Source of the DNA: Escherichia coli
GTDB lineage: Bacteria > Pseudomonadota > Gammaproteobacteria > Enterobacterales > Enterobacteriaceae
Assembly: GCF_013315695.1 (NCBI RefSeq)
Contig: NZ_CP054356.1
Reading direction: 5' to 3' (one strand)
DNA: 64,000 nucleotides
The stretch's first letter is position 1. Each line of letters starts with the position of its first letter. This document shows positions 9,291-27,954 of this stretch, piece by piece. The notes beneath the pieces are model-generated. The model did no database searches and had not been told where the DNA came from. It saw only the letters and a list, made by a program, of their open reading frames with translations. Both the position numbers and the translations under genes were made by a program.

Positions 9291-9312
9291 TGCTCCTGTG
9301 AGGATAATTCCC

Positions 9313-10287: not shown

Positions 10288-10598
10288 GATGTCGCCGTGC
10301 TCCTCTTTTTACTGCGCCGGCTGACGCGGCGCGGCATAAACGCTGCCTGTGGTCAGTGTCCCGCGTCCGGTGGGCACGGGACGGGCGCTTTTACCGCTCC
10401 CGGCTGGCGTCGGTGACAGTGTACGCCAGCCTGTCGCCCTTTTCTGATGAACGCCCTTCAAGCCGCTTTCGCGGCATAGCCTTGCCGTCAGAAAGACGAC
10501 GGCTGCGGTATTCCACGGTCGGCCTGACCCGTTACCGGACGCGGTGAACAGCCCACAGGCAGCGGGGAACGGGCACCACAGGGGTGCCCTCCCGGTGC
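10288..10598 (+). repeat. Leading-region structured repeat, family A copy 2 (Frpo/ssi-like)
   Basis: Near-identical to 8981-9290; ends just before RBS of methyltransferase gene. Confidence 0.6.
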
Positions 10599-10622
10599 CC
10601 TCTGTAAGAGAAGGAGTTTTGT

Positions 10623-11306
10623 ATGTCCCGTTTTGTCCTCGGTAACTGCATCGATGTTATGGCCCGTATTCCTGATAACGCCATTGATTTCATACTGACT
10701 GACCCGCCGTACCTCGTCGGTTTCCGTGACCGTTCCGGGCGCACCATTGCCGGTGATGTTAATGATGACTGGCTGCAACCTGCCAGCAATGAGATGTACC
10801 GCGTACTCAAAAAAGACGCGCTGATGGTCAGCTTCTACGGCTGGAACCGTGTCGATCGCTTTATGGCCGCCTGGAAACGCGCCGGATTCAGCGTGGCAGG
10901 GCACCTCGTGTTCACCAAAAACTACACATCCAAATCTGCGTATGTCGCGTACCGTCACGAATGCGCTTACATCCTGGCAAAGGGCAGTCCGGCCCGGCCC
11001 CGTAACCCTCTGCCGGATGTGCTGGGCTGGAAATATTCAGGCAATCGTCATCACCCGACGGAAAAGCCCGTTACCAGCCTGCAACCACTGATTGAGAGCT
11101 TCACACATCCGAACGCGATTGTGCTGGACCCGTTTGCAGGCAGCGGCTCAACCTGCGTCGCTGCCCTCCAGTCCGGACGCCGGTATATCGGTATCGAGCT
11201 GCTTGAACAGTATCACCGTGCCGGACAGCAACGACTGGCCGCCGTGCAACGGGCCATGCAGCAGGGGGCCGCGAATGATAACTGGTTTGAACCGGAGGCT
11301 GCGTAA
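10623..11306 (+). CDS. Orphan DNA methyltransferase (N6-adenine/N4-cytosine type, beta-class)
   Basis: Motif IV TDPPY precedes motif I DPFAGSGST; 227 aa; typical leading-region orphan MTase. Confidence 0.85.
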   Translation: MSRFVLGNCIDVMARIPDNAIDFILTDPPYLVGFRDRSGRTIAGDVNDDWLQPASNEMYRVLKKDALMVSFYGWNRVDRFMAAWKRAGFSVAGHLVFTKNYTSKSAYVAYRHECAYILAKGSPARPRNPLPDVLGWKYSGNRHHPTEKPVTSLQPLIESFTHPNAIVLDPFAGSGSTCVAALQSGRRYIGIELLEQYHRAGQQRLAAVQRAMQQGAANDNWFEPEAA

Positions 11307-11528
11307 ATGAACTATGCCGGACACGAAAAACTTCGCGCCGACGTGGCGGAGGTGGCCAACACCATGTGTGACCTTCGGGCCAGGCTGAACGATATGGAGC
11401 ATCGCTGTCGCTTTGATTCCGATGTGCTTGTTGAACGCCTGACACGCCAGACGCTGTATCGCGCCAATCGCCTGTTCATGGAGGCGTATACCGAAATTCT
11501 GGAACTGGATTCCTGCTTCAAAGATTGA
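11307..11528 (+). CDS. Hypothetical small protein (73 aa)
   Basis: ATG overlaps methyltransferase stop (TAAATG); operon context only. Confidence 0.5.
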   Translation: MNYAGHEKLRADVAEVANTMCDLRARLNDMEHRCRFDSDVLVERLTRQTLYRANRLFMEAYTEILELDSCFKD

Positions 11529-11541
11529 GAAGGAGACGAGA

Positions 11542-11976
11542 ATGTACGGAACATGCGAAACGCTATGCCGGGAGCTGGCAGCAAAGTATTCGGGAGACAC
11601 GCCACTGATGCTGGTTATCTGGTCCCCGGAAGAAATTCAGGCCCTCTCTGACGGAATGGATATTGCCCTGACCGATCATGAAATCAGGACTGTCCTGGCG
11701 CGCCTGGAGGACATCCCGGAAGACCAGCGGACTGAATCCGGTATTTCTTCCGGCGTGGCGATGGAGATCATCAATAACGTGAGCGAAAACCGCCAGGTGA
11801 CTGTCCCTGCTGAACTGCTGGCGTCCCTGATTCAGACCGCTGAACAGGCATTGTGGAAACGTGAATGGGCCGCCCGGGATCATGGCCTCGCCGTCCCGGA
11901 ATGCGTCACCCGCCGTCAGGCGGTGGTTAATCAGGTCCGCATCCTGCTGAAAAACAACACACACGAAAACGACTGA
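11542..11976 (+). CDS. Hypothetical leading-region protein, paralog of 13679-14098 (possibly DUF1380-type)
   Basis: Good RBS GAGAAGGAG; shares MY(G/C)T start and R-x-VTVPA-x-LL motif with ORF 13679. Confidence 0.6.
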   Translation: MYGTCETLCRELAAKYSGDTPLMLVIWSPEEIQALSDGMDIALTDHEIRTVLARLEDIPEDQRTESGISSGVAMEIINNVSENRQVTVPAELLASLIQTAEQALWKREWAARDHGLAVPECVTRRQAVVNQVRILLKNNTHEND

Positions 11977-12020
11977 TGTTATCGCCGCCTCCGGGCGGCG
12001 ATACAGGGAGTTCATGAATT

Positions 12021-12791
12021 ATGAATGAAATGCTGAATGCACTGATTTATCGCCACGCCAGCAACCTGTTGCTGGCGCAGGGCTGGCCGGAAGAGACGGA
12101 TGTTGACCAGCGTAACCCGAAGTATCCGGGCTGGATCAGCATTTACGTGCGGCTGGATGCGCCCCGGCTGGCGACGTTACTTATCAAGCGTCACGGCGGC
12201 GTACTGCCGCCGCTCCTGGCCTCTGCCATTCAGAAACTGACCGGAACCGGAGCGGAACTTGTTCTGTCCGGCAGTCAGTGGCAGTCGCTGCCGGTACTTC
12301 CGGCAGACGGAACGCAGGTGTCTTTCCCGTATGCCGGTGAGTGGCTGGCAGAGGACGAAATCAGGGCCGTTCTTGGTGCGGTACGCGATGCAGTATGCAG
12401 TGTCAGTTACCAGGTGGCAGAAGATGCGCGGCGTATCCGTGCGGCGCTGACCACCACCGGTCAGACGTTGCTGACCCGCCAGACGCGCCGCTTTCGCCTG
12501 GTGGTGAAGGAAAGCGATCACCCCTGCTGGCTCGATGAAGACGACGAAAACCTGCCCGTGGTGCTCGATGCCATCCTGAACCGGGGCGCTCGTTTTTCGT
12601 CGGTGGAAATGTATCTGGTCAGTGAGTGTGTGGAGCATATCCTGTCCAGTGGGCTGGCCTGCGATATGCTGCGTATACCGGATGAACCGCCCCGCCGCTG
12701 GTTTGACCGTGGTGTTCTGCGGGAGGTGGTCCGGGAAGCCCGGAACGAAATCCGCAGCATGGCGGATGCCCTGGCAAAAATCCGGAAATGA
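12021..12791 (+). CDS. Hypothetical protein (256 aa)
   Basis: RBS AGGGAG 10 nt upstream; codon usage consistent with neighbours; no family recognised. Confidence 0.55.
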
Positions 12792-12847
12792 TGACGCTGG
12801 CGGGGAAAAATCTCCGCCTTTTCCAGTCGGTCCCCGGAAAGAGCAAA

Positions 12848-13200
12848 AGGATGTCGCCGCAGGCTCCTCTTTACCCGGCCATGTGGGGCATGGCCTTGTG
12901 GGTTTTCAGTTATGTGGCCTCAGCGTCGTGTGCGGGCTGTGCCGTGCCTCCATCGTAGCCGGGCTTCTGCGGGCGGGTTGCAAGGTAAGGTGAACCGCTG
13001 CGGTCACCCGGTCCCTCCTTCCCGTCTGCCGTGATTTTCCGGTCGTTCACCCGCTCAGATTTCGCGGTCTCACCCTTCAACTCCCGTCAGCCGTGCGCGT
13101 CAGGCTGCGGCTTCCCTTGCGCCCTTGCAACCCTGCAGGCCCGGCAAAGATGGAGGCACGGCACCGCCCGGTGTCGCGGAATATGTGAACAACGGAGGAA
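12848..13200 (+). repeat. Divergent family-A-related structured element upstream of klcA
   Basis: Begins with the same AAGGATGTCGCCG..GCTCCTCTTT motif as family A copies, then diverges; GC-rich with inverted repeats. Confidence 0.45.
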
Positions 13201-13206
13201 AACATC

Positions 13207-13632
13207 ATGCAATATGCGAAACCTGTCACTCTGAACGTTGAAGAGTGTGACCGTCTCTCCTTTCTGCCTTACCTGTTTGGCAACGATTTTCTGTATGCCG
13301 AGGCGTATGTGTACGCGCTGGCGCAAAAAATGATGCCGGAATATCAGGGAGGCTTCTGGCATTTCATCCGCCTGCCGGACGGTGGCGGTTACATGATGCC
13401 GGATGGCGACCGTTTTCATCTGGTCAACGGTGAAAACTGGTTTGACCGCACTGTGAGTGCTGATGCCGCAGGTATCATCCTGACTTCCCTTGTGATTAAC
13501 CGCCAGTTGTGGCTGTACCACGACAGCGGGGATGCGGGACTGACACACCTTTACCGGATGCGCGATGCGCAGTTGTGGAGCCACATCGAATTTCACCCCG
13601 AATGCAATGCGATTTACGCGGCACTTGACTGA
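13207..13632 (+). CDS. klcA: Antirestriction protein KlcA/ArdB family
   Basis: 141 aa; size, leading-region position and motifs ([21 protein letters not shown]) consistent with recalled KlcA/ArdB. Confidence 0.65.
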
Positions 13633-13678
13633 TTAACGGACGGGGCGGCGATGCCGCCCCTGTAAAGGAGACGAGAAC

Positions 13679-14098
13679 ATGTACTGTACTGTTAAAGAAA
13701 TTATCCGCGAAGTGCTGGATACAGACGTGCCGGACAGTGAATGCGTTTTTGCCGTGGTGCTGACCCGTGGGGATGTGCGTCACATAGCCCAGGACTGGAG
13801 TCTGACAGACGATGAGCTGGAAACCGTCATGCAGCGGCTGGACGATGCCTTTGAGCATGGTGCTGATGTCAGCATTGTTCACGACGTTGTTCGTGAACTG
13901 ATGGAGGAAAAGCGCGTAAACCGTCTTGTAACAGTCCCTGCGGTGCTGCTGGAAAAAGTGATGGTGATGGCTGGTAGTGAAATTTATCGCCTCCATGCTG
14001 TAGGGAGCGAGAACGGGGGCGACGGTGACGCATTTGTCAGGGAAGAACGTGAGATTATGCGGGTGATGCGTCAGGCGCTGGACGGGGAGAATGGGTAA
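13679..14098 (+). CDS. Hypothetical leading-region protein, paralog of 11542-11976
   Basis: RBS AAAGGAGA; shared motifs with ORF 11542 (VTVPAVLLEKV). Confidence 0.6.
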   Translation: MYCTVKEIIREVLDTDVPDSECVFAVVLTRGDVRHIAQDWSLTDDELETVMQRLDDAFEHGADVSIVHDVVRELMEEKRVNRLVTVPAVLLEKVMVMAGSEIYRLHAVGSENGGDGDAFVREEREIMRVMRQALDGENG

Positions 14099-14289
14099 TG
14101 AATATCAGCAAGGAAACCCGCGAAATTCTGCGTAATTACAGGGCCGTGATTAATGCGCGGCGTCGTGAAATGGGGCAGAAACCGCTCACCACCGCGCAGA
14201 TTGTTGATGAAATATGTGATTTTGTGGTGAATCAGCAGGCTGTTTTCCTCGGTGGTCACTACATCCTTCAGGGCAGCAGGCACAGGTGA
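14098..14289 (+). CDS. Hypothetical small protein (63 aa)
   Basis: ATG overlaps previous stop (TAATG); operon context. Confidence 0.45.
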   Translation: MNISKETREILRNYRAVINARRREMGQKPLTTAQIVDEICDFVVNQQAVFLGGHYILQGSRHR

Positions 14290-14490
14290 TACAGGGCAGG
14301 CGGTGGAGGCCGCCTGTCAGCCCGCGCGAAAACCCCTGGCAGGCTGGCGCCTGCCGGAAGGGAAGCGGGCCACGCTGGCGCGTCGCCCGTTACCCTTCCC
14401 GTTTGTGATGTGTCCGGAATGTTTTTTCCTGATGTTATGTTTCTGTGGTTACTGTTCTTCTTCTTCCTCTTCTTTCCGTTCCTCTCCTGT

Positions 14491-15025
14491 TTATGCCTTT
14501 TCCGGGCGTCCCCCTGGCGGGGCGGGCTGTCGTGAACGGAGCCAGCGGAGCTGTCTCCGCCCTGGCGGGCTTCCATCCCTGACGCAAAACCCCGGGTTTG
14601 CAGCGACCGGAACGGTCGCGCCACCCCTGTCGCGCCGTGGCCTGCGCTCCCGGCATCCCGGCAAAAAGACGCCGGGATGTAAGGAGCAACGCCGTTTCGC
14701 AAACCGCGCTTCACGTCGTTGCAGCGGGTCCCTGCTCATTGCCTGCCGGGTGCCACACACCCGTATGAGTCCCTGTCGCCGGGGGCATAGACAGCCACAA
14801 CCTGCCGCACTGACTGTCCAGGGTAAATGAACAGCCCACAAAATTTTTTACCTAAAACCCGGTAAAAAATTTTGCGTTCTGCCCAGGACAGGTGCGTCAG
14901 GCCGTGGCAGTGATGCCCCTTGCGGCGAAGGTTCTCAAACGGGTGAAGTTCATACCACAGGGAATACAGCAGCAGGTTCCCGCGAAACGTCAAAACCGCG
15001 GCTCCCGAAACTCAACGGGTGATGT
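14491..15025 (+). repeat. Leading-region structured repeat, family B copy 1 (Frpo/ssi-like candidate ssDNA promoter)
   Basis: About 530 bp repeated at 17774-18300 and 23191-23740; contains perfect 14-bp inverted repeat CAAAATTTTTTACC/GGTAAAAAATTTTG (about 14839-14874). Confidence 0.6.
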
Positions 15026-15256
15026 TCTTTAAAAATCAGGATTTATTTCAGGCTCCGGCAATACGCATTTATGTGTTCTGTCAGTCATCCGGCTGGCAGG
15101 TAATGAAAACGCAGGAACAGAAGGAGGAAAACACCGGAAAGCGTCAGATGCAGATATGAAAAAAAGCAGGTCAGGGACCTGCTTAATCCACGCCGTAAGA
15201 ATTGTGCGACCAATTTTGACGGCATTGTTAACCAATTTGTCATAAGGAATCCATTT

Positions 15257-15487
15257 ATGACTGTAAGCATTGTTTCACCTTCCGCAGCGGCTGTAAAGCC
15301 CCGCCGTCATCCCCGTTTCAGACGCGAAGACATCCCCGCGCCGGAACTTGACCCCGTGCTGAAAGCCTTCGGGCGACACATTGCCCGGAGTTTTCGCCGG
15401 GGGCGTGGTGTACACATCCCCGCCATGAAAAACACGGCCTTCGGGCAGGTGCTCCGCACACTCGAACTGAAACGCGCTTTTAACTGA
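15257..15487 (+). CDS. Hypothetical small basic protein (76 aa, Arg-rich)
   Basis: RBS AAGGAA; first gene after family B copy 1; RRHPRFRRED..RSFRRGRG. Confidence 0.5.
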   Translation: MTVSIVSPSAAAVKPRRHPRFRREDIPAPELDPVLKAFGRHIARSFRRGRGVHIPAMKNTAFGQVLRTLELKRAFN

Positions 15488-15538
15488 TGAGGTGAGCCGC
15501 CCCGCGAGGGGCGGCAACAGACGGAAGGAGAACATTTT

Positions 15539-16900
15539 ATGACATTAGCAGCAATCACCATGACCGCCCCGGAAGCCGCCAGCCCTGTGCAGATGTACCG
15601 CGCGACCTACTCACCGGATGACAACAAACTGCGCCTGTATGCCGTGTCACGTCTTGACCCGGAGACGTATAAAAAAGTGCATGATGCCGGTTTTCGCTGG
15701 GCACCAGAACAGGCGCTGTTTGTGGCTCCAGCCTGGACACCGGGCCGGGAAGACGTGCTCCTCTCACTTGCCGGAGAGATTGAGGATGAAGACAGCACGC
15801 TCGCTGAACGTCAGGAAGCACGGGCGGAGCGGTTTACCGGATACAGCGGAAAGCGGGCCAGTGAATCCGCACAGGCACTTGATGAAGTGGAAAGACTGGC
15901 CGCGATGATCCCGCCCGGTCAGCCCATTCTTGTGGGGCATCACAGCGAACGCCGCGCCCGTCGTGATGCGCAGCGTATTGAAAACGGCATGAAACGTGCC
16001 GTGATGCTCTTTGAACGTGCGGAATACTGGGAAGAACGTGCGCGGTCGGCACTGCTTCACGCGAAGTATAAAGAACGTCCGGACGTTCGCTGGCGTCGTA
16101 TCAAAAAAATCGAAGCTGATTTGCGCAAGGCTGAAAAGACCATCGCACAGTCGCAGAAATATCTGACGATGTGGCGGGCTGAATCGCTGGATCTGAATAT
16201 GGCAAAACTCATCAGCAGTCATGACCATATCAGCGCCTGTTTCCCGCTGGATACGTATCCGCGCCCGGCAGAAAAAAGCCAGTATGAAGGAAGTCGATCG
16301 TTATGGTCGGCCCTGGATGATGACATCATCACCACGGAGCAGGCCCGCGAAATTGCGATCCGCTGTCATGAACGGCAGATTCAGCATCAGCAACGCTGGG
16401 TTAACCACTATCAGAACCGCCTGATCTATGAGCGTGCCATGCTGGACGAAAGCGGCGGCGTGGTTACCCGGACACAGGATTTTGAGCCGGGCGGACAGGT
16501 TTTCAGCCGGGGCGAGTGGCTGACCATCATCCGCGTGAACAAAAGCAACGGGGCGGTGAGTTCAGTCACAACGCCGAATTACAGTTTTCTCGGGTACAGC
16601 GGCACGATGAAAGTGACGCCCGATCGCATCACGGACTACAAAGCACCATCGGCAGAAGAGGCTGCCGTCGCCAGCCAGGCCGCGAAGCGTCCGCCGGTAG
16701 TCAACTATCCGGGGGAAGGTTTCCGGGAAATGACAAAGGCGCAGTGGGCCGCCCTGCCCCGGGACTGTAAGGCCGTGCGCAGTGTGGCAGAGACAGAAGA
16801 CCACGGGGCATACCGCTACCGCCGCACAATGGACAATAATTTCCGCCTGGTGAATGTGTATATCACCGACATGAAAATCACGGAAATCCCGCAGAAATAA
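15539..16900 (+). CDS. Hypothetical leading-region protein (453 aa)
   Basis: Strong RBS GAAGGAGA; long ORF with Arg/Glu-rich helical central region; no family assigned with confidence. Confidence 0.65.
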   Translation: MTLAAITMTAPEAASPVQMYRATYSPDDNKLRLYAVSRLDPETYKKVHDAGFRWAPEQALFVAPAWTPGREDVLLSLAGEIEDEDSTLAERQEARAERFTGYSGKRASESAQALDEVERLAAMIPPGQPILVGHHSERRARRDAQRIENGMKRAVMLFERAEYWEERARSALLHAKYKERPDVRWRRIKKIEADLRKAEKTIAQSQKYLTMWRAESLDLNMAKLISSHDHISACFPLDTYPRPAEKSQYEGSRSLWSALDDDIITTEQAREIAIRCHERQIQHQQRWVNHYQNRLIYERAMLDESGGVVTRTQDFEPGGQVFSRGEWLTIIRVNKSNGAVSSVTTPNYSFLGYSGTMKVTPDRITDYKAPSAEEAAVASQAAKRPPVVNYPGEGFREMTKAQWAALPRDCKAVRSVAETEDHGAYRYRRTMDNNFRLVNVYITDMKITEIPQK

Positions 16901-16946
16901 GGTATATCCCCCCGGGAAATCCCCGGGGGATGACGGAGATAATGAT

Positions 16947-17510
16947 ATGCACAGTCAGTTAAAAGAACGTATCCGGCTGATGCGCGCAAGGCTGGATAAC
17001 GCCGCGCCGGTTGCTGAAATCCGGGCTGAATCTCAGCTTTTTGTGACTCCTGCCCCGGTCTGTGATCGCCTGGTGACGCTGGCGGAGATCAGCAACCGTG
17101 ATCACATTCTGGAACCCTCTGCCGGCACCGGGGCCATACTGCGGGCGATTCGTCATGTCGCGCCGGGGGCCATGTGTGATGCGGTGGAGATTAACAGCGG
17201 GCTGGTCCGGTATCTGCGGGATAATTTTAACGGTGTCAGGGTTCAGTGTGGCGACTTCATGGAATGGCAGCCGGTGCAGTATTACAGCCGGATTATCATG
17301 AATCCGCCGTTCAGTCACGGGCAGGATATCCGGCATATCCTGCGGGCTTTTTCCCTGTTGCGTCCGGGTGGTGTGCTGGTTGCCGTCTGTCTGAACGGGC
17401 CGCGCCAGCAGGAGAAGCTGTTACCGTTTTCTGATGTCCGCGAGGTGCTGCCGTGCGGCACATTTGCTTATACCCGTGTTCCGACGATGATTATTCGTCT
17501 GCGTGCCTGA
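16947..17510 (+). CDS. Small orphan SAM-dependent DNA methyltransferase (N6-adenine type)
   Basis: Motif I EPSAGTGA and motif IV NPPF; 187 aa; RBS GGAG. Confidence 0.7.
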   Translation: MHSQLKERIRLMRARLDNAAPVAEIRAESQLFVTPAPVCDRLVTLAEISNRDHILEPSAGTGAILRAIRHVAPGAMCDAVEINSGLVRYLRDNFNGVRVQCGDFMEWQPVQYYSRIIMNPPFSHGQDIRHILRAFSLLRPGGVLVAVCLNGPRQQEKLLPFSDVREVLPCGTFAYTRVPTMIIRLRA

Positions 17511-17687
17511 TGACTCCGGGCAGGCGGGAGGATAAATGCCCGTCTGCCCGCGCCGGGAAAAGACCGCGCGCCGGTGGCGCTGAAAGGGGCCGCGCTTACG
17601 CGCCGCCCCTTTCATTACGCGGACGTTCTGCTGTGGGCTTCTGTCTTTTCAGACCTGTCATTTGCCTGTTACTGATGATGTTGTTGT

Positions 17688-17722
17688 TCCTGCTACTGCT
17701 ACTGCTACTGCTACTGCTACTG
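17688..17722. repeat. Tandem hexanucleotide repeat (TGCTAC)n, about 5 units
   Basis: CTGCTACTGCTACTGCTACTGCTACTGCTACTG in pyrimidine-rich tract preceding family B copy 2. Confidence 0.8.
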
Positions 17723-17773
17723 TTCTTCTTTTTTCTGCTGCTCTGATTACTGTCTGTTTTGTTGTTCTCCTGC

Positions 17774-18300
17774 TTATGCCTTTTCCGGGCGTCCCCCTGG
17801 CGGGGCGGGCTGTCGTGAACGGAGCCAGCGGAGCTGTCTCCGCCCTGGCGGGCTTCCATCCCTGACGCAAAAACCCGGGTTTGCAGCGACCGGAACGGTC
17901 GCGCCACCCTTGTCGCGCCGTGGCCTGCGCTCCCGGCATCCCGGCAAAAGACGCCGGGATGTAAGGAGCAACGCTGTTTCGCAAACCGCGCTTCACGTCG
18001 TTGCGGCGGGTCCCTGCCCGTTGTTCTGTCCGGTGCCATTCACCTGTTTAAGCCCCTGTCGCCGGGGGCTGATACAGCCACAACCTGCCGCACTGACTGT
18101 CCAGGGTAAATGAACAGCCCACAAAATTTTTTACCCAAAACCCGGTAAAAAATTTTGCGTTCTGCCCAGGACAGGTGCGTCAGGCCGTGGCAGTGATGCC
18201 CCATGCGGCGAAGGTTCTCAAACAGGTGATGGTGAATACCGGAGGGAACAAAAGGCAGGTCCCCGCAAAACGTCAAAACCGCGGCTCCCGAAACTCAACA
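17774..18300 (+). repeat. Leading-region structured repeat, family B copy 2 (Frpo/ssi-like), upstream of ssb
   Basis: Near-identical to 14491-15025 and 23191-23740. Confidence 0.6.
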
Positions 18301-18340
18301 GATGATGGGGGCTGAAAACATCAACAGAAGGAGACACATC

Positions 18341-18868
18341 ATGGCAGTTCGTGGCATTAACAAGGTCATTCTTGTCGGTCGTCTGGGAAAAGATCCGGAA
18401 GTCCGTTACATCCCCAACGGGGGCGCAGTGGCAAACCTGCAGGTGGCCACGTCAGAAACCTGGCGCGACAAACAGACGGGGGAAATGAAGGAGCAGACGG
18501 AATGGCACCGCGTGGTGCTGTTCGGCAAGCTCGCGGAAGTGGCAGGTGAATATCTGCGTAAGGGGGCGCAGGTCTACATTGAAGGCCAGCTTCGCACCCG
18601 TAGCTGGGAAGATAACGGTATTACCCGTTACGTCACCGAAATCCTTGTTAAAACCACGGGCACCATGCAGATGCTGGGGAGTGCACCACAGCAGAACGCT
18701 CAGGTGCAACCGCAGCCTCAGCAGAATGGTCAGTCACAGAGTGCTGACGCGACGAAAAAAGGGAGCGCGAAAACGAAAGGCCGTGGACGTAAGGCTGCGC
18801 AGCCGGAGCCTCAGCCGCAACCACCGGAGGGGGAGGATTACGGGTTTTCAGACGATATCCCGTTCTGA
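18341..18868 (+). CDS. ssb: Plasmid single-stranded DNA-binding protein SSB
   Basis: [23 protein letters not shown].. OB-fold N-terminus and acidic C-terminal tail DDIPF; track ORF extended to upstream ATG 18302. Confidence 0.95.
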
Positions 18869-18886
18869 CTGGCCTGACTGTGATAA

Positions 18887-19159
<273 letters not shown>

Positions 19160-19219
19160 GAGAGGTGCCGGACGGGGATCACGTCCGGCAGACATTAACT
19201 ACACAATAAGGGGATAGTC

Positions 19220-21184
19220 ATGTCAGTAACAAAGTCTGAACCAAAATCTACCCGTAAAGCAAGCCGTAAACCTGCAAAAACGCAGGAAACTGTCCTGTCT
19301 GCCCTGCTGGCGCAGACGGAGGAAGTGAGCGTGCCGCTGGCCTCGCTGATTAAGTCACCACTGAATGTGCGCACGGTGCCGTATTCTGCGGAGTCCGTCA
19401 GCGAACTGGCTGATTCCATTAAGGGGGTCGGCCTGCTGCAGAATCTGGTTGTTCATGCCCTGCCAGGTGACCGCCACGGTGTCGCCGCAGGTGGTCGCCG
19501 ACTGGCAGCACTCAACATGCTGGCAGAGCGTGGCATCATTCCGGCTGACTGGCCTGTCCGCGTGAAAATTATTCCGCAGGAACTGGCGACGGCCGCATCG
19601 ATGACCGAGAACGGTCATCGTCGGGATATGCACCCAGCCGAACAGATTGCCGGATTCTGTGCAATGGCGCAGGAAGGCAAAACACCTGCACAAATCGGTG
19701 ATTTGCTGGGCTATTCACCCCGCCACGTTCAGCGAATGCTGAAACTGGCTGACCTTGCGCCTGTCATCCTCGATGCGCTGGCAGAAGACCTCATCACCAC
19801 CGAGCACTGTCAGGCGCTGGCGCTGGAGAACGACACCGCGCGTCAGGTGCAGGTGTTTGAAGCCGCCTGTCAGTCGGGATGGGGCGGTAAACCGGAAGTA
19901 CAGACCATTCGTCGTCTGGTGACCGAAAGTGAAGTGGCGGTGGCAGGGAACAGTAAATTCCGCTTCGTGGGGGCTGATGCCTTCTCGCCAGATGAACTGC
20001 GCACTGACCTGTTCAGCGACGACGAGGGTGGCTATGTGGACTGCGTGGCGCTCGATGCCGCCCTGCTGGAAAAACTCCAGGCTGTTGCTGAACACCTTCG
20101 GGAAGCCGAAGGCTGGGGATGGTGCGCCGGACGCATGGAGCCTGTCGGTGAGTGCCGTGAGGATGCCGGAACATACCGCTGTCTGCCGGAGCCGGAAGCG
20201 GTGCTGACGGAGGCGGAAGAAGAACGTCTGAACGAACTGATGACGCGTTACGACGCGCTGGAAAACCAGTGTGAGGAATCTGACCTGCTGGAAGCAGAAA
20301 TGAAGCTGATGCGCTGCATGGCGAAGGTCAGGGCGTGGACGCCGGAGATGCGTGCCGGAAGCGGTGTGGTGGTGTCCTGGCGTTATGGCAACGTGTGTGT
20401 CCAGCGTGGTGTGCAGTTGCGCAGCGAGGATGATGCGGCTGACGACGCTGACCGCACGGAACAGGTGCAGGAGAAAGCGCCCGTGGAGGAAATCAGTCTG
20501 CCACTGCTGACGAAAATGTCTTCCGAACGCACGCTGGCAGTCCAGGCAGCACTGATGCAGCAACCGGACAAATCCCTGGCACTGCTGGCATGGACGCTCT
20601 GCCTGAATGTGTTTGGCAGCGGAGCGTACAGTAAACCAGCACAAATCAGCCTGGAATGTAAACATTATTCGCTGACCAGCGATGCGCCATCGGGGAAGGA
20701 CGGTGCCGCATTCCTGGCGCTGATGGCAGAAAAAGCCCGTCTTGCAGCCCTGTTACCGGAGGGATGGTCACGGGATATGACGACGTTCCTGTCACTCAGC
20801 CAGGAGGTACTGTTATCCCTGCTCAGTTTCTGCACCGCGTGCAGCATCCACGGCGTTCAGACCCGCGAGCATGGTCACACGTCACGCAGTCCGCTGGACT
20901 CGCTGGAGAGCGCTATCGGATTCCACATGCGCGACTGGTGGCAGCCGACGAAAGCAAACTTCTTCGGACACCTGCAAAAGCCGCAGATTATCGATGCCCT
21001 GAATGATGCCGGACTGTCCGGTGCTGCGCGGGACGCGGAGAAAATGAAGAAAGGCGATGCCGCTGAACATGCAGAGTTCCACATGAAAGACAACCGCTGG
21101 GTGCCTGGCTGGATGTGTACACCACGTCCACAGGCAGAGACGGAAACCACGGAGTACCGTGACGACCAGGCAGAAGCCGCCTGA
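19220..21184 (+). CDS. ParB-like nuclease domain protein (leading-region ParB/Srx homolog)
   Basis: 654 aa; N-terminal ParB-type region (..GLLQNLVVH.. GGRRLAALN..); conserved position between ssb and psiB. Confidence 0.7.
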
Positions 21185-21252
21185 CCGCCAGTCATAAACC
21201 ATTTATCACGCCGCCCTGCCGGAGACGGGGCGGCAGCAAGGGAGATACCGTG

Positions 21253-21687
21253 ATGAAAACTGAACTGACCCTGAATGTATTACAGACCATGAGCGCACAG
21301 GAATATGAAGATATCCGGGCTGCCGGAAGTGATGAACGTCGTGAACTCACACATGCCGTGATGCGGGAGCTGGATGCGCCGGATAACTGGACGATGAACG
21401 GCGAGTATGGCAGCGAGTTCGGCGGCTTTTTCCCCGTCCAGGTCCGTTTCACGCCTGCCCACGAACGTTTTCACCTGGCGTTATGTTCACCGGGCGATGT
21501 CTCTCAGGTCTGGGTGCTGGTTCTGGTGAATGCCGGTGGTGAGCCGTTTGCGGTGGTTCAGGTACAGCGGCGGTTTGCACCGGAAGCCGTCAGCCATTCA
21601 CTGGCACTGGCGGCGTCACTGGACGCGCAGGGGTACAGCGTCAGTGACATCATCCATATCCTGATGGCGGAAGGAGGTCAGGCATGA
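21253..21687 (+). CDS. psiB: Plasmid SOS inhibition protein PsiB
   Basis: [40 protein letters not shown].. matches recalled PsiB; ATG at 21253 (track starts at GTG 21250). Confidence 0.95.
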
Positions 21688-22403
21688 GCGCACGTTCACA
21701 GGCACTGGTTCCCCTCAGCGCAGAGCAACAGGCCGCATGGCGGGCGGTGGCGGAGACAGAAAAACGCCGCCACCAGGGAAACACGCTGGCGGAATATCCG
21801 TATGCGGGGGCGTTTTTCCGCTGTCTGAACGGAAGCCGCAGGATATCGCTGTCTGACCTGCGATTTTTCATGCCGTCCCTGACCGCAGAAGAACTGCGCG
21901 GCAACCGTTCTCAGTGGCTGTATGCCGTCGATGTGCTGATTGAAACTCAGGGCGAGGTCTGCCTTCTTCCCCTTCCCGGCGATGCAGCAGAGCGGCTGTT
22001 CCCGTCGGTGCGGTTCCGTGTCAGGGAGCGCAGTCGCCACAAATCCGCACTGGTCATGCAAAAGTACAGCCGCCAGCAGGCGAGGGAGGCAGAGCAGAAA
22101 GCCCGTGCGTACCAGGCGCTGGTCGCTCAGGCTGAAATCGAACTGGCATTCCATTCGCCGGAAACAGTCGGAAGCTGGCATGCCCGCTGGAGTGACCGGG
22201 TGGCAGAGCATGACCTGGAAACCCTGTTCTGGCAGTGGGGTGAGCGTTTTCCGTCACTGGCCGGAATGGAACGCTGGCAGTGGCAGGATATGCCGTTCTG
22301 GCAGGTTATTGCGGAAGCCAGTCTTGCAGCAAGAGAGGCCGGTCACGCTGTCCGTGAGATGGAGCGGTGGATGGTGCCGAACAAACTCCGGGAGGCGGCG
22401 TGA
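21684..22403 (+). CDS. psiA: Plasmid SOS inhibition protein PsiA
   Basis: 239 aa immediately downstream of and overlapping psiB stop. Confidence 0.85.
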
Positions 22404-22559
22404 TGCGGCAACAATCGCACAGATTACCCGTAAACAGCCTGAATGAGCGGGTTATTTTCAGGAAAAGTGAGTGTGGTCAGCGTGCAGGTATATGGGCTAT
22501 GATGTGCCCGGCGCTTGAGGCTTTCTGCCTCATGACGTGAAGGTGGTTTGTTACCGTGT

Positions 22560-22640
22560 TGTGTGGCAGAAAGAAGATAGCCCCGTAGTAAGTTAATTTT
22601 CATTAACCACCACGAGGCATCCCTATGTCTAGTCCACATC
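22560..22640 (-). ncRNA. Putative sok/flmB-type antisense RNA (approximate)
   Basis: Inferred from hok/mok architecture: antisense to mok leader; boundaries not determined. Confidence 0.3.
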
Positions 22641-22837
22641 AGGATAGCCTCTTACCGCGCTTTGCGCAAGGAGAAGAAGGCCATGAAACTACCACGAAGT
22701 TCCCTTGTCTGGTGTGTGTTGATCGTGTGTCTCACACTGTTGATATTCACTTATCTGACACGAAAATCGCTGTGCGAGATTCGTTACAGAGACGGACACA
22801 GGGAGGTGGCGGCTTTCATGGCTTACGAATCCGGTAA
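22625..22837 (+). CDS. mok: mok-like modulator-of-killing reading frame overlapping hok
   Basis: 70-aa ORF overlapping the hok frame, as in hok/sok and flm loci. Confidence 0.6.
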
Positions 22838-22841
22838 GTAG
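22683..22841 (+). CDS. hok: Hok/Gef-family membrane toxin (FlmA/Hok-like), 52 aa; below ORF-track size cut-off
   Basis: Translation [52 protein letters not shown] matches recalled Hok; TAG stop at 22839-22841. Confidence 0.92.
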
Positions 22842-22850
22842 CAACCTGGA

Positions 22851-22872
22851 GGCGGGCGCAGGCCCGCCTTTT
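22851..22872 (+). terminator. Rho-independent terminator of hok mRNA
   Basis: GGCGGGCGCAGGCCCGCC hairpin followed by TTTT. Confidence 0.7.
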
Positions 22873-23190
22873 CAGGGCTGATGCTGGTCTGACTGCACTG
22901 AAGCGCCTTTATAAAGGGGCTGCTGGTTCGCCGGTGGCCCCTTTCTCCTTGCTGGCATTGTACGGGCATGAACAACCAGACTGCCAGGAAGGCCGTTTCC
23001 CTCCGGGAACGGGGATGAACGTGCGCCTGCGGCGCCCGTTCTTTTCCCCCGCCTTCTCTGTTTATGACTTACCAGAAATCACATCACCTTCCCTTTGATT
23101 ATTCTCTTTTTCCTCCTGCTCTGACTCTGATTACTGCTCTGACTCTGATTACTGCTGCCCTGATTATTGTCTGTTTTGTTGTTCTCCTGC

Positions 23191-23740
23191 TTATGCCTTT
23201 TCCGGGCGTCCCCCTGGCGGGGCGGGCTGTCGTGAACGGAGCCAGCGAAGCTGTCTCCGCCCTGGCGGGCTTCCATCCCTGACGCAAAACCCCCGGCTTG
23301 CAGCGACTGTTCCGGTCGCGCCGCCTCTGTCGCGCCGTGGCCTGCGCTCCTGGCATCCCGGCAAAAGGCCGCCGGGATGTAAGGCGCAACGCCGTTTCGC
23401 AAACCGCGCTTCACGTCGTTGCGGCGGGTCCCTGCCCGTTGTTGTGTCCGGTGCCATTCACCTGTTTAAGCCCTGTCGCCGGGGCTGATAGTTGATACAA
23501 CCTGCCGCACTGACTGTCCGGTAAAATGAACAGCCCACAAAATTTTTTACCCAAAACCCGGTAAAAATTTTGCGTTCTGCTCCAGACAGGTGCGTCAGGC
23601 CGTGGCAGGTGATGCCCCTGCGGCGAAGGTTCTCAAACAGGTGATGGTGAATACCGGAGGAACAAAAGGCAGGTCCCCGCAAAACGTCAAAACCGCGGCT
23701 CCCGAAACTCAACAGATGATGGGGGCTGAAAACATCAGAT
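23191..23740 (+). repeat. Leading-region structured repeat, family B copy 3 (Frpo/ssi-like)
   Basis: Near-identical to copies 1 and 2; 3' end shares the ssb leader sequence up to about 10 nt before the RBS. Confidence 0.6.
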
Positions 23741-23752
23741 ACAGGAGGAATT

Positions 23753-24049
23753 ATGAGCGCATTTTCTTTTAACACCACTTATCAGCCAACAGGCGATCAG
23801 CAGAAAGACGCAATCGCACAAATCGGGATCATGCAGAATCGTGCTGTTCAGGCAAATCTTGCATATCAGAGCTGCCGGGATTCTGGTGCACTCTTTAAGG
23901 TGCTCCACCAGGTCAATAATGAGCTGCATGACTTACTGGATAGCCTGGAGAATCATACTCCTCTTGTCAGAAAAAACGCTGATGAGTTGATCGCGCTGTT
24001 ACTGCTTTTCACTCGGCAGGTTGGTCAGTCCCGAACTGACCTGATTTGA
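23753..24049 (+). CDS. Hypothetical protein (98 aa)
   Basis: RBS AGGAGG; first gene after family B copy 3. Confidence 0.5.
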   Translation: MSAFSFNTTYQPTGDQQKDAIAQIGIMQNRAVQANLAYQSCRDSGALFKVLHQVNNELHDLLDSLENHTPLVRKNADELIALLLLFTRQVGQSRTDLI

Positions 24050-24159
24050 TGGTCCTTCCCCTCGGAATTGTTGTCTTTTTGTTAACGATAACCGAGGGGG
24101 GATGATATTAAGCGAAAAAACTTTTATTAATTTTATGCCTTCATAAAGGAGTTACTGTT

Positions 24160-24981
24160 ATGCGATTAGCTTCCCGTTTTGGTCGATATAATTCTATTCG
24201 CCGTGAGCGCCCGTTAACGGATGACGAATTAATGCAGTTTGTTCCATCTGTCTTTTCTGGTGATAAACATGAATCCCGGAGTGAGCGTTATACATATATC
24301 CCAACCATCAATATCATCAATAAGTTACGTGATGAAGGTTTCCAGCCATTCTTTGCCTGTCAGAGTCGGGTTCGTGATTTGGGACGCCGCGAATACAGTA
24401 AACATATGTTACGTCTTCGCAGGGAAGGGCATATTAACGGGAAAGAAGTTCCTGAAATTATCCTGCTTAATTCACATGATGGTTCATCCAGTTATCAGAT
24501 GATCCCAGGAATTTTTCGTTTTGTCTGCACAAATGGCCTGGTGTGTGGGAATAATTTTGGCGAAATCCGCGTTCCACATAAAGGTGATATTGTCGGGCAG
24601 GTTATTGAGGGAGCGTATGAAGTGCTCGGTGTCTTTGATAAAGTCACTGAAAATATGGAGACAATGAAAGAGATACATCTTAACAGTGACGAACAACATT
24701 TATTTGGCAGAGCTGCATTGATGGCCAGGTACGAAGATGAAAATAAAACGCCAGTGACGCCAGAACAAATAATTACTCCCCGCCGTTGGGAGGATAAACA
24801 GAACGATCTCTGGACAACCTGGCAGCGGGTTCAGGAGAATATGATAAAAGGTGGATTATCGGGGCGAAGTGCCTCCGGTAAAAATACCAGAACAAGAGCC
24901 ATTACAGGCATTGACGGTGATATCCGAATCAACAAAGCATTATGGATGATTGCCGAACAGTTCAGGGAGTGGAAGTCATGA
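24160..24981 (+). CDS. Conserved leading-region protein (DUF932-like)
   Basis: 273 aa; conserved position next to orf169/oriT in F-like plasmids; family name from memory only. Confidence 0.5.
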   Translation: MRLASRFGRYNSIRRERPLTDDELMQFVPSVFSGDKHESRSERYTYIPTINIINKLRDEGFQPFFACQSRVRDLGRREYSKHMLRLRREGHINGKEVPEIILLNSHDGSSSYQMIPGIFRFVCTNGLVCGNNFGEIRVPHKGDIVGQVIEGAYEVLGVFDKVTENMETMKEIHLNSDEQHLFGRAALMARYEDENKTPVTPEQIITPRRWEDKQNDLWTTWQRVQENMIKGGLSGRSASGKNTRTRAITGIDGDIRINKALWMIAEQFREWKS

Positions 24982-25030
24982 TAATATAAGTAAAGCCCCG
25001 AAAAATTTTTCGGGGCTTTACTTATATTAT
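24981..25030. terminator. Perfect 50-bp palindrome (bidirectional terminator candidate) between convergent genes
   Basis: ATAATATAAGTAAAGCCCCGAAAAA / TTTTTCGGGGCTTTACTTATATTAT. Confidence 0.65.
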
Positions 25031-25277
25031 CATCCTGCGGCATTGCTGTGTCGTCTGATATGCCTCAATTTCATCAACTGGCTTTTCGGTAGTCTGTAAA
25101 TATTGTGCCCGCGAAAAATGGTCTGGCAGGAGGCTGCACAGTTACCGGATATATATAAGATGGGATCCCGCTTTGCGGGGCTTCGGCCAGTCAGCATTAT
25201 CACTCATATGATATTTTTGTGTGTGGCCTTCCATGCCGCTGTCGCGGCATAACCGGTATTTGACAATGTATACAATA

Positions 25278-25787
25278 TTAATTTTTCTGCACACTGTTAA
25301 TTTGGGAAAGTGATTTCTTCGTGGTCGGAACCCGGATGCCTTTACTGCTCTTTATCCAGGTATAAATCCGGTAAACCTCTGATGCGTAGGCAAGACGTCT
25401 CTGGTTCTGGCGTTCGGTCTTCCTGAATCCGGCATTGTATGCACCAACGGCCTCCCAGGAGACGCCCCATTTTTTAAAGGCTATTGCCAGATAATAAGCA
25501 CCGGTATAAATGTTCATGCAGGGATCTGTTGTCAGATGTTCCGGCTTAATTCCATAGCGGGCCAGTTCGTTAAAATGCTGGGAATCTACCTGCATCAGTC
25601 CGCTGCCATATCCCGTTACCGGATTAATACCGATGGCATTAACCCGGTAACGGGATTCTTTCCATGATATCGCTCTCAGTAAATCCGGGTCTATTTTGTA
25701 ATCCCGACCTGCAAGATCAAAGCAATCGGCGGCTTCGCAGATCCCATTTATAAACATCAGGCAGATTGCTAACATCCATTTTTTCAT
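25278..25787 (-). CDS. Lytic transglycosylase (F orf169/gene X-like)
   Basis: 169 aa with signal peptide and transglycosylase motifs (..ISWKESRY.. GLMQV.. AYNAG..); transcribed away from oriT. Confidence 0.85.
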
Positions 25788-25789
25788 TT

Positions 25790-26195
25790 TTCCACCTCTG
25801 GTGACTTTATCCGTAAATAATTTAACCTACTCCACAAAAAGGCTCAACAGGTTGGTGGTTCTCACCACCAAAAGCACCACACCCCACGCAAAAACAATTT
25901 TTTGCTGATTTTTCTTTATAAATAGAGTGTTATGAAAAATTAGTTTCTCTTACTCTCTTTATGATATTTAAAAAAGCGGTGTCGGCGCGGCTACAACAAC
26001 GCGCCGACACCGCTTTGTAGGGGTGGTACTGACTATTTTTATAAAAAACATCATTTTATATTAGGGGCGCTGCTAGCGGCGCGGTGTGTTTTTTTATAGG
26101 ATACCGCTAGGGGCGCTGCTAGCGGTGCGTCCCTGTTTGTATTATGAATTTTAGTGTTCCGAAATTAACTTTATTTTATGTTCAAAAAAGGTAAT
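25790..26195 (-). other. oriT: Origin of transfer oriT (F/R100-type); nic predicted on minus strand near 25878/25879
   Basis: Plus strand carries reverse complement of the F nic region (..CCAAAAGCACC|ACACCCCACGC..), adjacent inverted repeat GGTGGTTCTCACCACC, A/T-rich tracts, hairpin GCGGTGTCGGCGCG..CGCGCCGACACCGC, repeated AGGGGCGCTGCTAGCGG motifs (TraM-site candidates). Confidence 0.8.
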
Positions 26196-26200
26196 CTCTA

Positions 26201-26584
26201 ATGGCTAAGGTGAACCTGTATATCAGCAATGATGCCTATGAAAAAATAAATTCGATTATTGAGAAGCGTCGACAGGAAGGGGCAAGGGAAAAAGATGTCA
26301 GTTTTTCAGCAACAGCTTCAATGCTTCTTGAACTGGGGCTTCGTGTATATGAGGCTCAGATGGAGCGTAAAGAGTCTGCATTTAATCAGACTGAGTTTAA
26401 TAAATTGCTTCTTGAATGCGTTGTAAAAACACAATCATCAGTAGCGAAAATTTTGGGTATTGAGTCTCTCAGTCCTCATGTCTCCGGAAATCCAAAGTTT
26501 GAATATGCCAATATGGTTGAAGATATCAGGGAGAAGGTATCATCTGAGATGGAACGATTTTTTCCAAAAAATGATGATGAATAA
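26201..26584 (+). CDS. traM: Relaxosome protein TraM
   Basis: 127 aa MAKVNLYISNDAYEKINSIIEKRRQEGAREKDVSFSATASMLLELGL.. matches TraM. Confidence 0.95.
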   Translation: MAKVNLYISNDAYEKINSIIEKRRQEGAREKDVSFSATASMLLELGLRVYEAQMERKESAFNQTEFNKLLLECVVKTQSSVAKILGIESLSPHVSGNPKFEYANMVEDIREKVSSEMERFFPKNDDE

Positions 26585-26692: not shown

Positions 26693-26775
26693 AATTTGAA
26701 AATCGCCGATGCAGGGAGTTCTCTCCTCCCCGCATCGACTGTCCATAGAATCCTTTGTGAGGAGGTTCCTATGTA
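26693..26775 (-). ncRNA. finP: FinP antisense RNA (approximate)
   Basis: Antisense to traJ leader/RBS; two stem-loops (e.g. CGATGCAGGGAG..CTCCCCGCATCG) and minus-strand U-tail (plus GAATTTGAAAATC). Confidence 0.6.
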
Positions 26776-27460
26776 TCCGATGGATCGTATTCAACAAAAA
26801 CATGCTCGTCAAATAGATCTGCTGGAAAATCTGACGGCAGTTATTCAGGATTATCCAAATCCAGCCTGTATCAGGGACGAAACTGGAAAATTTATTTTTT
26901 GCAATACGCTGTTTCATGAGTCATTTCTTACACAAGATCAAAGTGCTGAAAAATGGCTTCTGTCGCAGAGAGATTTTTATGAATTGATCTCTGTCACAGA
27001 GATGGAAGCATACAGGAATGAGCATACGCATCTTAATCTTGTAGAGGATGTTTTTATTCAGAACAGATTCTGGACAATATCTGTCCAGTCATTTCTTAAT
27101 GGACACAGAAATATTATTCTGTGGCAATTTTATGATGCTGCTCATGTTCGTCATAAAGACAGTTATAATCAAAAAACGATTGTCAGTGATGATATCAGAA
27201 ATATAATCAGAAGAATGAGTGATGATTCTTCTGTATCATCATATGTAAATGATGTATTTTACTTATATAGCACCGGAATCAGTCATAATGCTATAGCAAG
27301 AATATTAAACATATCCATCTCCACATCAAAGAAACACGCATCTCTGATATGCGACTACTTCTCTGTTTCTAATAAAGATGAGTTAATCATCTTACTCTAC
27401 AATAAAAAGTTTATTCATTATTTATACGAGAAGGCTATGTGTATCATAAATATGCGTTAA
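26771..27460 (+). CDS. traJ: Transfer operon activator TraJ
   Basis: ATG with RBS GAGGAGG; MYPMDRIQQKHARQIDLLENL..; track ORF extends upstream to 26690. Confidence 0.85.
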   Translation: MYPMDRIQQKHARQIDLLENLTAVIQDYPNPACIRDETGKFIFCNTLFHESFLTQDQSAEKWLLSQRDFYELISVTEMEAYRNEHTHLNLVEDVFIQNRFWTISVQSFLNGHRNIILWQFYDAAHVRHKDSYNQKTIVSDDIRNIIRRMSDDSSVSSYVNDVFYLYSTGISHNAIARILNISISTSKKHASLICDYFSVSNKDELIILLYNKKFIHYLYEKAMCIINMR

Positions 27461-27558
27461 TAAAGTGTTAATAAAATATAGACTTTCCGTCTATTTACCT
27501 TTTCTGATTATTCTGCAAACATAAGTGGTAACCAGAAGATAAACAGCGGGAGGTGTTA

Positions 27559-27954
27559 TTGAAAAGATTTGGTACACGTTCTGCAACAGGTAAGATGGTA
27601 AAACTAAAATTACCTGTAGATGTGGAAAGTCTATTAATTGAGGCAAGTAACAGAAGCGGAAGAAGTCGATCGTTTGAGGCAGTAATAAGACTTAAAGATC
27701 ATCTTCACCGCTATCCAAAGTTTAACAGGGCAGGAAATATCTATGGTAAGTCGCTGGTTAAGTATCTGACAATGCGTCTGGATGATGAAACTAACCAGCT
27801 ACTTATTGCAGCAAAAAATCGTAGTGGATGGTGTAAAACAGATGAGGCTGCAGACAGAGTTATTGATCATTTGATCAAGTTTCCTGATTTTTATAACTCG
27901 GAGATATTCAGGGAGGCAGATAAAGAGGAAGATATAACATTTAATACACTCTAG
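27559..27954 (+). CDS. traY: Relaxosome accessory protein TraY
   Basis: Ribbon-helix-helix protein (..FGTRSATGKMVKLKLPVDVESLL..); probable TTG start at 27559 after RBS GGGAGG (track: 27553). Confidence 0.85.
   Translation: MKRFGTRSATGKMVKLKLPVDVESLLIEASNRSGRSRSFEAVIRLKDHLHRYPKFNRAGNIYGKSLVKYLTMRLDDETNQLLIAAKNRSGWCKTDEAADRVIDHLIKFPDFYNSEIFREADKEEDITFNTL

Follow-up and report, generated by a model that had tools for sequence, protein, structure and literature searches.

The F plasmid (NC_002483) and R100 (NR1, NC_002134) are the described systems against which the locus presented here was compared. It lies in a stretch of 64,000 nucleotides from Escherichia coli (NCBI RefSeq assembly GCF_013315695.1, contig NZ_CP054356.1), which belongs to an IncF plasmid and is in the following referred to as the window. 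In the F family, the relaxase TraI becomes covalently attached to the 5' phosphate at nic, and it is this 5' end that passes into the recipient first (PMC3074121; Couturier et al.; PMC12117103). Cryo-EM of the relaxosome placed the trans-esterase (TE) site 5' of nic and the helicase site 3' of nic (PMC12117103), the TraI substrate used experimentally was 5'-TTTGCGTGGGGTGT^GGT-3' (PMC2504302), and the recognition motif of F TraM was given as A(G/C)CG(G/C)T (PMC3159463). As a general arrangement, genes of the leading region are oriented so that the transferred strand (T-strand) serves as template (PMC11541004). Two sites of F, Frpo2 upstream of ssb and Frpo1 upstream of ygeA, were reported to drive early expression of leading genes in vivo (Couturier et al.).

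F and R100 are told apart at nic by two bases, G145' and G147' in F versus T and A in R100. In vitro, discrimination between the F and R100 sites is roughly 1000-fold. On the side of the relaxase a small set of TraI residues is concerned, which, as cited in Lang et al. (2011), swapped F and R100 specificity (Harley & Schildbach, 2003, via Lang et al., 2011, PMC3245843).

Structure of the origin of transfer

The region 25790-26195, in which a sequence-only reading of the window had recognized an oriT, was found to be the entire intergenic oriT between gene X and traM, with the nick near its low-coordinate end. Compared with the oriT of F (NC_002483), 25788-26200 displayed a handful of mismatches over ~410 nt and was gap-free within oriT. 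A 601-nt query spanning 25700-26300 matched 4752 plasmid records, 2525 of which showed a query coverage of at least 80%. The following features were assigned:

25788..26200, unstranded: whole oriT, the gene X-traM intergenic region (alignment with F oriT)
25852..25878, minus strand: T-strand segment 3' of nic, the TraI helicase-loading site in F (same sequence in F and R100)
25852-25859 and 25864-25871: 8-bp inverted repeat TTGGTGGT/ACCACCAA inside the 3' nic segment
25878..25879, minus strand: nic, the bond predicted to be cleaved by TraI (match of the nic 23-mer and cleavage position of PMC2504302); in F numbering T25879 is T141' and G25878 is G140'
25879..25892, minus strand: TraI trans-esterase binding site, 5'-TTTGCGTGGGGTGT-3', directly 5' of nic on the T-strand (three-way alignment with F and R100, oligonucleotides of PMC2504302)
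25890-25972: AT-rich stretch, probably corresponding to the position of the IHF and TraY sites in F
25973..26016, unstranded: perfect 17-bp inverted repeat with two F-type TraM motifs A(G/C)CG(G/C)T, sbmC-like, named by position
26062-26083 and 26108-26129, unstranded: two 22-nt direct repeats TAGGGGCGCTGCTAGCGG(C/T)GCG, sbmB/sbmA-like by position

The nic core, the inverted repeat, which as in F-type oriTs lies directly 3' of nic on the T-strand (25852-25871), and the repeats with TraM sites are identical in F. Two further F-type TraM motifs at 26103 and 26121 adjoin traM, and their alignment columns are likewise identical in F. The resulting four sites in 413 nt amount to eight hits on both strands, as the motif is self-complementary, compared to 0.88 per 413 nt window-wide. 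Together with the traM and traY genes listed below, these predicted binding repeats probably represent the cognate combination of proteins and sites that belongs to an F-type oriT. A scan of oriT for promoters and terminators was uninformative, because hits were no commoner than in shuffles.

Nicking site and nicked strand

The 23-base nic motif of F, GTGGGGTGT^GGTGCTTTTGGTGG, is present in a single exact copy in 64 kb, on the minus strand from 25887 to 25865. When both strands of the 64 kb were searched with the pattern GTGGGGTGTGGTGCTTTTGGTGG, this position (minus strand, 25887..25865) was the one match, with zero mismatches, and in the alignment with F the recognition sequence 5'-GTGGGGTGT^GGTGCTTTT-3' is located on the transferred, minus strand. 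None of 100 dinucleotide-preserving shuffles matched the F nic pattern, even at three mismatches; the match is far above chance, and the observation is correct. A further nic site or a second oriT was not found on either strand of the 64-kb window at up to three mismatches. At the two bases which discriminate F from R100 (+ coordinates 25883 and 25885) the F state is present, and oriT displays the F-specific GGGG where R100 reads AGTG. Checked base by base, the experimental substrate TTTGCGTGGGGTGT^GGT of PMC2504302 maps to minus-strand 25892 to 25876, and the scissile bond is therefore predicted between T25879 and G25878.

An F-type nic, written as its reverse complement on the + strand, had been the starting point of the sequence-only reading, which had also proposed an alignment with the oriT of F and R100 as a check. 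Both the exact, unique match and the alignment bear this out, and at up to three mismatches all that could be aligned was the site on the minus strand.

Gene order and direction of transfer

The genes next to oriT are:

25278..25787, minus strand: gene X/orf169, lytic transglycosylase with SLT domain (Pfam SLT, E = 4.7e-22)
26201..26584, plus strand: traM, F-type allele (Pfam Tra_M, E = 8.4e-56; NCBIfam equivalog)
26666-26777: traJ 5' UTR and antisense RNA FinP (Rfam traJ_5, FinP)
26771..27460, plus strand: traJ, F-type allele (NCBIfam TraJ equivalog)
27553..27954, plus strand: traY, F-type long (two-RHH) form (Pfam TraY, two stretches)

This order, with gene X/SLT on the minus strand and traM, traJ and traY on the plus strand, is that of F and R100, and downstream follow traA and the remainder of an F-type tra operon. 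The annotations of F, R100 and pPA45B have gene X at the corresponding position, and colinearity with F and R100, and also with pPA45B, extends to both sides of oriT. The tra genes occupy the high-coordinate side, and ssb, psiB and psiA the low-coordinate one. With respect to leading region and tra genes, oriT is placed and oriented as in F: it separates gene X (SLT) from traM, and the tra operon lies where transfer would end. An Rfam scan of 8-30 kb recovered expected plasmid RNAs only.

Because the nick lies on the minus strand and TraI is held on the 5' end, the minus strand would be transferred 5' to 3' towards decreasing coordinates. G25878 is probably the TraI-linked 5' end and as such the first base to enter the recipient; a minus strand starting there at its 5' end continues with the inverted repeat 25852-25871 and then with gene X, the first T-strand gene into the recipient and the sole minus-strand gene on the leading side. 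This direction had been claimed before from the orientation of nic, and the strand of nic, the 5'-end polarity known from F and the colinearity with F agree in pointing to it. The accompanying claim, that the DNA from 25.8 kb down to 9 kb is the first in the recipient, is supported as well, with '9 kb' as a reasonable but conventional limit. The region concerned and its far end are made up as follows:

8978..25877, minus strand: leading region, ~16.9 kb, read on the T-strand (Pfam, Rfam sok, annotation of pPA45B, F and R100)
8811-8973: iterons, adjoining the conventional far end at ~8978
7486-8801, minus strand: parM/parR, beside the far end of the leading region

The predicted order of entry is:

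Start: gene X, DUF932 (24160-24981), ygeA-like (23753-24049), Frpo copy C, hok/sok
Middle: psiA (21684-22403), psiB (21250-21687), ParB-like (19220-21184), ssb (18302-18868)
After ssb: Frpo copy B, methyltransferase, DUF3560, Frpo copy A, DUF1380
End: antirestriction gene (13207-13632), DNA methylase, DUF1281

Pfam matches to SSB, PsiB, PsiA, Antirestrict and N6_N4_Mtase and an Rfam match to sok were obtained in this region, which adjoins nic on the 5' side of the T-strand and in ssb, psiB/psiA, antirestriction and toxin-antitoxin functions has the content of a leading region. All 15 identified leading-region genes between 9.3 and 25.0 kb are located on the + strand and thus have the minus strand as template; the arrangement in which the T-strand serves as template is thereby present, with gene X as the one exception. 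At 16.9 kb the leading region is longer than that of F (~13.5 kb), owing to an R100-like DUF3560/methyltransferase block and to local duplication.

Frpo homologues in the leading region

Three repeats of ~600 nt share 92.6-93.9% identity with the stretch that precedes ssb in F and 84-89% with the one that precedes ygeA:

23143..23737, minus strand: Frpo homologue C, upstream of the ygeA-like gene and DUF932, hairpin core 23458-23644; 93.0% and 89.0% identity with the two Frpo regions of F; folds at -50.4 (minus strand) and -43.6 kcal/mol (plus strand), z = -7.1 vs -5.2
17726..18323, minus strand: Frpo homologue B, upstream of ssb, hairpin core 18040-18229; 93.9% identity with the stretch that precedes ssb in F; -67.3 (minus) and -57.8 kcal/mol (plus)
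14443..15040, minus strand: Frpo homologue A, upstream of the DUF3560/methyltransferase block, hairpin core 14758-14945; 92.6% identical to the F Frpo2 region; -69.2 (minus) and -61.8 kcal/mol (plus)

With Frpo1 and Frpo2 of F (Masai & Arai, 1997; Couturier et al., 2023), to which the copies are 84-94% identical, they share the sites upstream of ssb and of the ygeA/ygeB homologues and a long imperfect hairpin on the transferred strand, whereas F possesses two copies and the window three, the third of them upstream of the DUF3560 block. In DNA folding of the ~190-nt hairpins the minus strand was the more stable one by 6.8 (C), 9.5 (B) and 7.4 kcal/mol (A). The copies thus combine homology and a place upstream of leading genes with a stabler hairpin on the strand that is transferred, as is characteristic of Frpo. 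As a candidate for the -35 and -10 hexamers, only CGGACA and TATCAA, 17 nt apart on the 3' arm of copy C, were picked by eye. Since a polymerase reads only towards the 5' end of its template, transcription from these sites would run towards oriT and into the + strand genes. The repeat pair 8978-9293 / 10284-10598 was considered as a further candidate for a single-stranded DNA promoter; in contrast to the three copies, it forms strong folds with little or no strand bias (-95.9 vs -91.4 and -91.6 vs -91.6 kcal/mol). The idea that the orientation of nic supports an interpretation of the repeats as single-stranded DNA promoters appears sound, given homology and the folding bias towards the minus strand.

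The agreement between the orientation of the leading genes and the folding of the Frpo copies supports transfer of the minus strand independently of nic. A nick on the + strand, or a transfer in which the tra genes enter first, would require a different picture: the recognition sequence is found on the minus strand only, the gene arrangement is colinear with that of F, a plasmid of established polarity, and both gene orientation and folding bias favour the minus strand. As no evidence in support of a + strand nick or of tra-first transfer was found, the probability of this explanation is regarded as negligible. Motif, strand, homology, gene layout and strand-biased folding, as observed in the window, leave little doubt that 25788-26200 is a canonical F-type (IncF, MOBF12) oriT, nicked on the minus strand, with the leading region going first.

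An F-type cassette in an R100-like backbone

In a sliding comparison, an F-type cassette of ~2.1 kb, reaching from ~25883 to ~27990, stood out from an R100-like backbone. It comprises traM, traJ/FinP and traY together with the recognition bases of nic and the protein-binding part of oriT, and is 98-99% identical to F, but 72-84% identical or unalignable to R100. The backbone is 97-100% identical to R100 from 18 to 25.9 kb and over most of 28-59 kb, with a few shorter patches at 84-96%. The proteins encoded in the cassette reflect the same origin: TraM agrees with F in 124/127 residues (97.6%) and with R100 in 114/127, TraJ is 98.7% identical to F and 29% to R100, and TraY is identical to F in 133/133 residues. 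R100 differs in its nic (GCGTAGTGTGT), in a short (75-aa) TraY and in unrelated TraJ and oriT protein-binding sequences, and F differs in its backbone, since the flanks of the cassette in the window are R100-like. TraI and TraD are 99.4% and 98.9% identical to R100, which also shares parM/parR and the DUF3560/methyltransferase insert, the latter absent from F.

Relaxase and nic belong to different alleles

The relaxase gene is located far downstream of the cassette:

53525..58795, plus strand: traI, relaxase/helicase (NCBIfam TraI equivalogs; TraI of F and R1 are the closest solved structures)

According to the alignment, the catalytic residues Y16, Y17, H146, H157 and H159 are all present. 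Overall identity is 99.4% to R100 TraI, as given above, and 96.2% to F TraI. In the relaxase domain, a single residue out of 330 differs from R100 TraI36. The specificity residues L2, D153, R193 and Q201 are of R100 type, while F possesses M, E, Q and R at these positions; where an F/R1-type nic would be matched by E153/Q193/R201, TraI of the window thus reads D153/R193/Q201. The window accordingly pairs an F-type nic, GCGTGGGGTGT, with an R100-type relaxase, a point which the sequence-only reading had not contained. Judged by its sequence this discordance is a real feature of the window, and the orientation of transfer is unaffected by it.

To place the discordance, the nic allele and TraI residues 153, 193 and 201 were typed in 22 other plasmids, 10 of them obtained by even-step sampling of BLAST rankings and the rest being top hits or references. 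Nic and TraI alleles were concordant in 22/22, and the window is the sole discordant case among the 23. All 12 plasmids with an F-type nic carried TraI with E/Q/R, i.e., F, pPA45B, pSCU-124-2, NZ_CP027536.1, NZ_CP074408.1, pMB1341_2, NZ_CP032165.1, pEcoUTI1d, NZ_OX030702.1 and three further plasmids, whose nic bases were deduced from an oriT identity of 98.1-98.3% to the window. D/R/Q was found in 10/10 plasmids with an R100-type nic (R100, pSCU-124-1, NZ_CP014112.1, CP054247.1, NZ_CP045714.1 and five others), which span at least three different TraM/TraJ/TraY allele sets.

Among the matches listed, the closest relatives are microcin-B17 IncF plasmids of E. coli of ~70 kb. pSCU-124-2 (NZ_CP051708.1), NZ_CP027536.1 and relatives are 100% identical to the window over 24500-29500 and therewith over the whole oriT cassette; in NZ_CP027536.1 and pSCU-124-2 the identity of 100% holds for 1-9000 (mcb, parMR) too, and in pSCU-124-2 for most of 19.5-47.5 kb. 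The two plasmids differ from the window in the relaxase domain, which is F-type (E153/Q193/R201) and matches their nic, whereas that of the window is R100-type. In both, the first ~900 nt of traI are 97-98% identical to F and ~90% to R100, and the gene is mostly R100-like beyond. Two F-type patches 25 kb apart in one backbone look like the result of selection for a matched pair, and the sequences of these sister plasmids suggest that nic and relaxase were selected together. The window possesses the oriT patch, but the F-type patch in the relaxase domain is absent.

One way to account for the discordance would be an assembly artefact, in which two co-resident, similar F-like plasmids were joined into a chimera within a shared tra stretch. 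For the tra region 30000-54900, neither PLSDB nor the complete E. coli genomes of RefSeq yielded a match above 98.9%; pSCU-124-2 agrees with the window at 100% across most of 19.5-47.5 kb and in 59.5-64 kb, but in 48-59 kb the window is R100/CP014112-like, and strain SCU-124 carries both kinds of plasmid, all of which would fit such a chimera. However, the block of 48-59 kb is a patchwork from several sources without a single clean switch, as is typical of natural IncF mosaics, many independent records contain the traG-traI block 46400-54600 at 100% identity, and the reading frames across the junctions are all intact. An artefact is considered improbable.

Because F-type nic bases meet an R100-type TraI, the efficiency of self-nicking is uncertain. 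The orientation might hold as described while oriT is a poor substrate for its own relaxase, so that self-transfer would be inefficient or a co-resident F-type TraI would be needed; we regard this as rather unlikely, though as a more serious alternative than a chimera. It would fit the residues L2/D153/R193/Q201 facing GCGTGGGGTGT, the strict covariation of alleles in the 22 typed plasmids (E/Q/R with an F-type nic, D/R/Q with an R100-type nic) and the fact that sister plasmids with an identical oriT cassette carry an F-type patch limited to the beginning of traI. On the other hand, TraM and TraY belong to the same F allele set as their sites, the C-terminal tail of TraD is conserved, and TraI of R100-1 is reportedly insensitive in vivo to the two-base difference in nic. 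Published mutants can be read in both directions: Lang et al. (2011, PMC3245843) constructed (M2L/)E153D/Q193R/R201Q with the aim of a lower affinity for an F/R1-type nic, and E153D/Q193R/R201Q failed to complement in the phage R17 assay with such a nic, yet cleavage by the mutant was said to be not completely eliminated. In the F system, moreover, a 1000- to 10000-fold loss of affinity between TraI and oligonucleotides usually left transfer at 10-30% (PMC2504302).

Discussion

A minus-strand oriT from which the leading region is transferred first is textbook F-plasmid biology. For the canonical F-type oriT, the course of events can be outlined by homology with F, from whose literature cleavage, export polarity and promoter activity are taken. 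IHF and TraY would bend the AT-rich part of oriT, with TraM bound to the repeats next to traM. The trans-esterase domain of TraI would bind the melted minus strand at 5'-TTTGCGTGGGGTGT-3', and Tyr16 would cut between T25879 and G25878 and remain linked to the 5' phosphate of G25878. A second TraI would load 3' of nic (25852-25878, including the inverted repeat) and unwind the plasmid. The minus strand would then be exported with its 5' end first into decreasing coordinates, so that the 16.9-kb leading region (25877 to ~8978) would come first into the recipient and the tra operon last. On the incoming minus strand, the Frpo hairpins may drive rightward transcription before the complementary strand is synthesized. 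The orientation of nic determines the strand that is transferred and thereby the genes that arrive first and the strand on which the Frpo hairpins would have to form, and it helps to interpret the repeats.

The nic allele and the specificity residues of TraI were co-inherited in the 22 typed plasmids, even across two separate patches, and it is this rule that the window breaks. Tentatively, and with slightly less than even confidence, the window may be seen as a natural experiment in relaxase specificity, in which an F-type nic cassette is combined with an R100-type trans-esterase domain of TraI. The mismatch offers a modest, testable lead for specialists in IncF mosaicism and in the specificity of relaxases. 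Should the plasmid be self-transmissible, an R100-type TraI tolerates an F-type nic in vivo. It would then illustrate how a stepwise exchange of specificity modules can take place, and the window would represent either a mismatched intermediate or a reversion to mismatch.

Mosaic structure of the transfer region

The transfer region includes an F-type cassette of 2.1 kb, around which the backbone is R100-like:

25883-27990, F-type cassette with the protein-binding half of oriT, traM, traJ/FinP and traY

Its left junction lies inside the conserved block around nic, the TraI cleavage site on the minus strand, and its right junction coincides with the traY/traA boundary. The block between nic and gene X was found to be invariant apart from a single window-specific base at position 25829, where the minus strand carries A (GGAGTAGGTTAA) vs G in F and R100 (GGAGTGGGTTAA). 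The microcin B17 plasmid pSCU-124-2 is otherwise identical to the window, but differs at 48000-59000 (end of traG, traS, traT, traD, traI), a patchwork in the window whose successive sub-blocks are nearest to R100, pSCU-124-1, pPA45B and NZ_CP014112.1.

Leading region and adjacent loci

957-7100, minus strand, microcin B17 operon
7486-8973, parM/parR (StbA/StbB; minus strand), then iterons
8978-9293 and 10284-10598, pair of GC-rich direct repeats of ~315 nt, 95-97% identical
14443-15040, third homologue of the ssDNA promoter Frpo (copy A), upstream of the DUF3560/methyltransferase block
15161-15262, minus strand, AS-pc01 ('Antisense to pHK01_035'; Rfam)
22509-22685, sok antitoxin RNA (Rfam) belonging to a hok/sok-type locus

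Whereas the F plasmid has only two Frpo copies, a third is present here, and directly downstream of it lies AS-pc01, the match of which (79.4 bits) barely reaches the Rfam gathering score of 79. The sok RNA is located between Frpo copy C and psiA. At the far end the two ~315-nt repeats flank a DUF1281 gene. Both form stable folds (-91 to -96 kcal/mol) that hardly differ, if at all, between the strands, and they could represent another ssi or promoter-type element. By convention the leading region ends at the iterons, of which there are about five, each 11 bp long (8811-8973). Judging by the annotation of 100%-identical plasmids, the segment at 957-7100 is the microcin B17 operon, comprising McbB, a SagB/ThcOx dehydrogenase, a YcaO-like protein, an ABC transporter and the immunity protein McbE.

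Alleles of nic and TraI

53525-54514, TraI relaxase domain with R100-type specificity residues

The window carries an F/R1-type nic (GCGTGGGGTGT^GG; recognition bases 25883-25885) alongside the R100-type TraI residues L2/D153/R193/Q201.

Both alleles were concordant in all other plasmids typed (22/22). In pSCU-124-2 (35174-36073) and NZ_CP027536.1 a second F-type patch covers only the first ~900 nt of traI, beyond which the gene is R100-like. Since these two sister plasmids, with an identical oriT cassette, carry F-type sequence at the 5' end of traI, the comparison suggests that nic and relaxase-domain alleles are co-selected.
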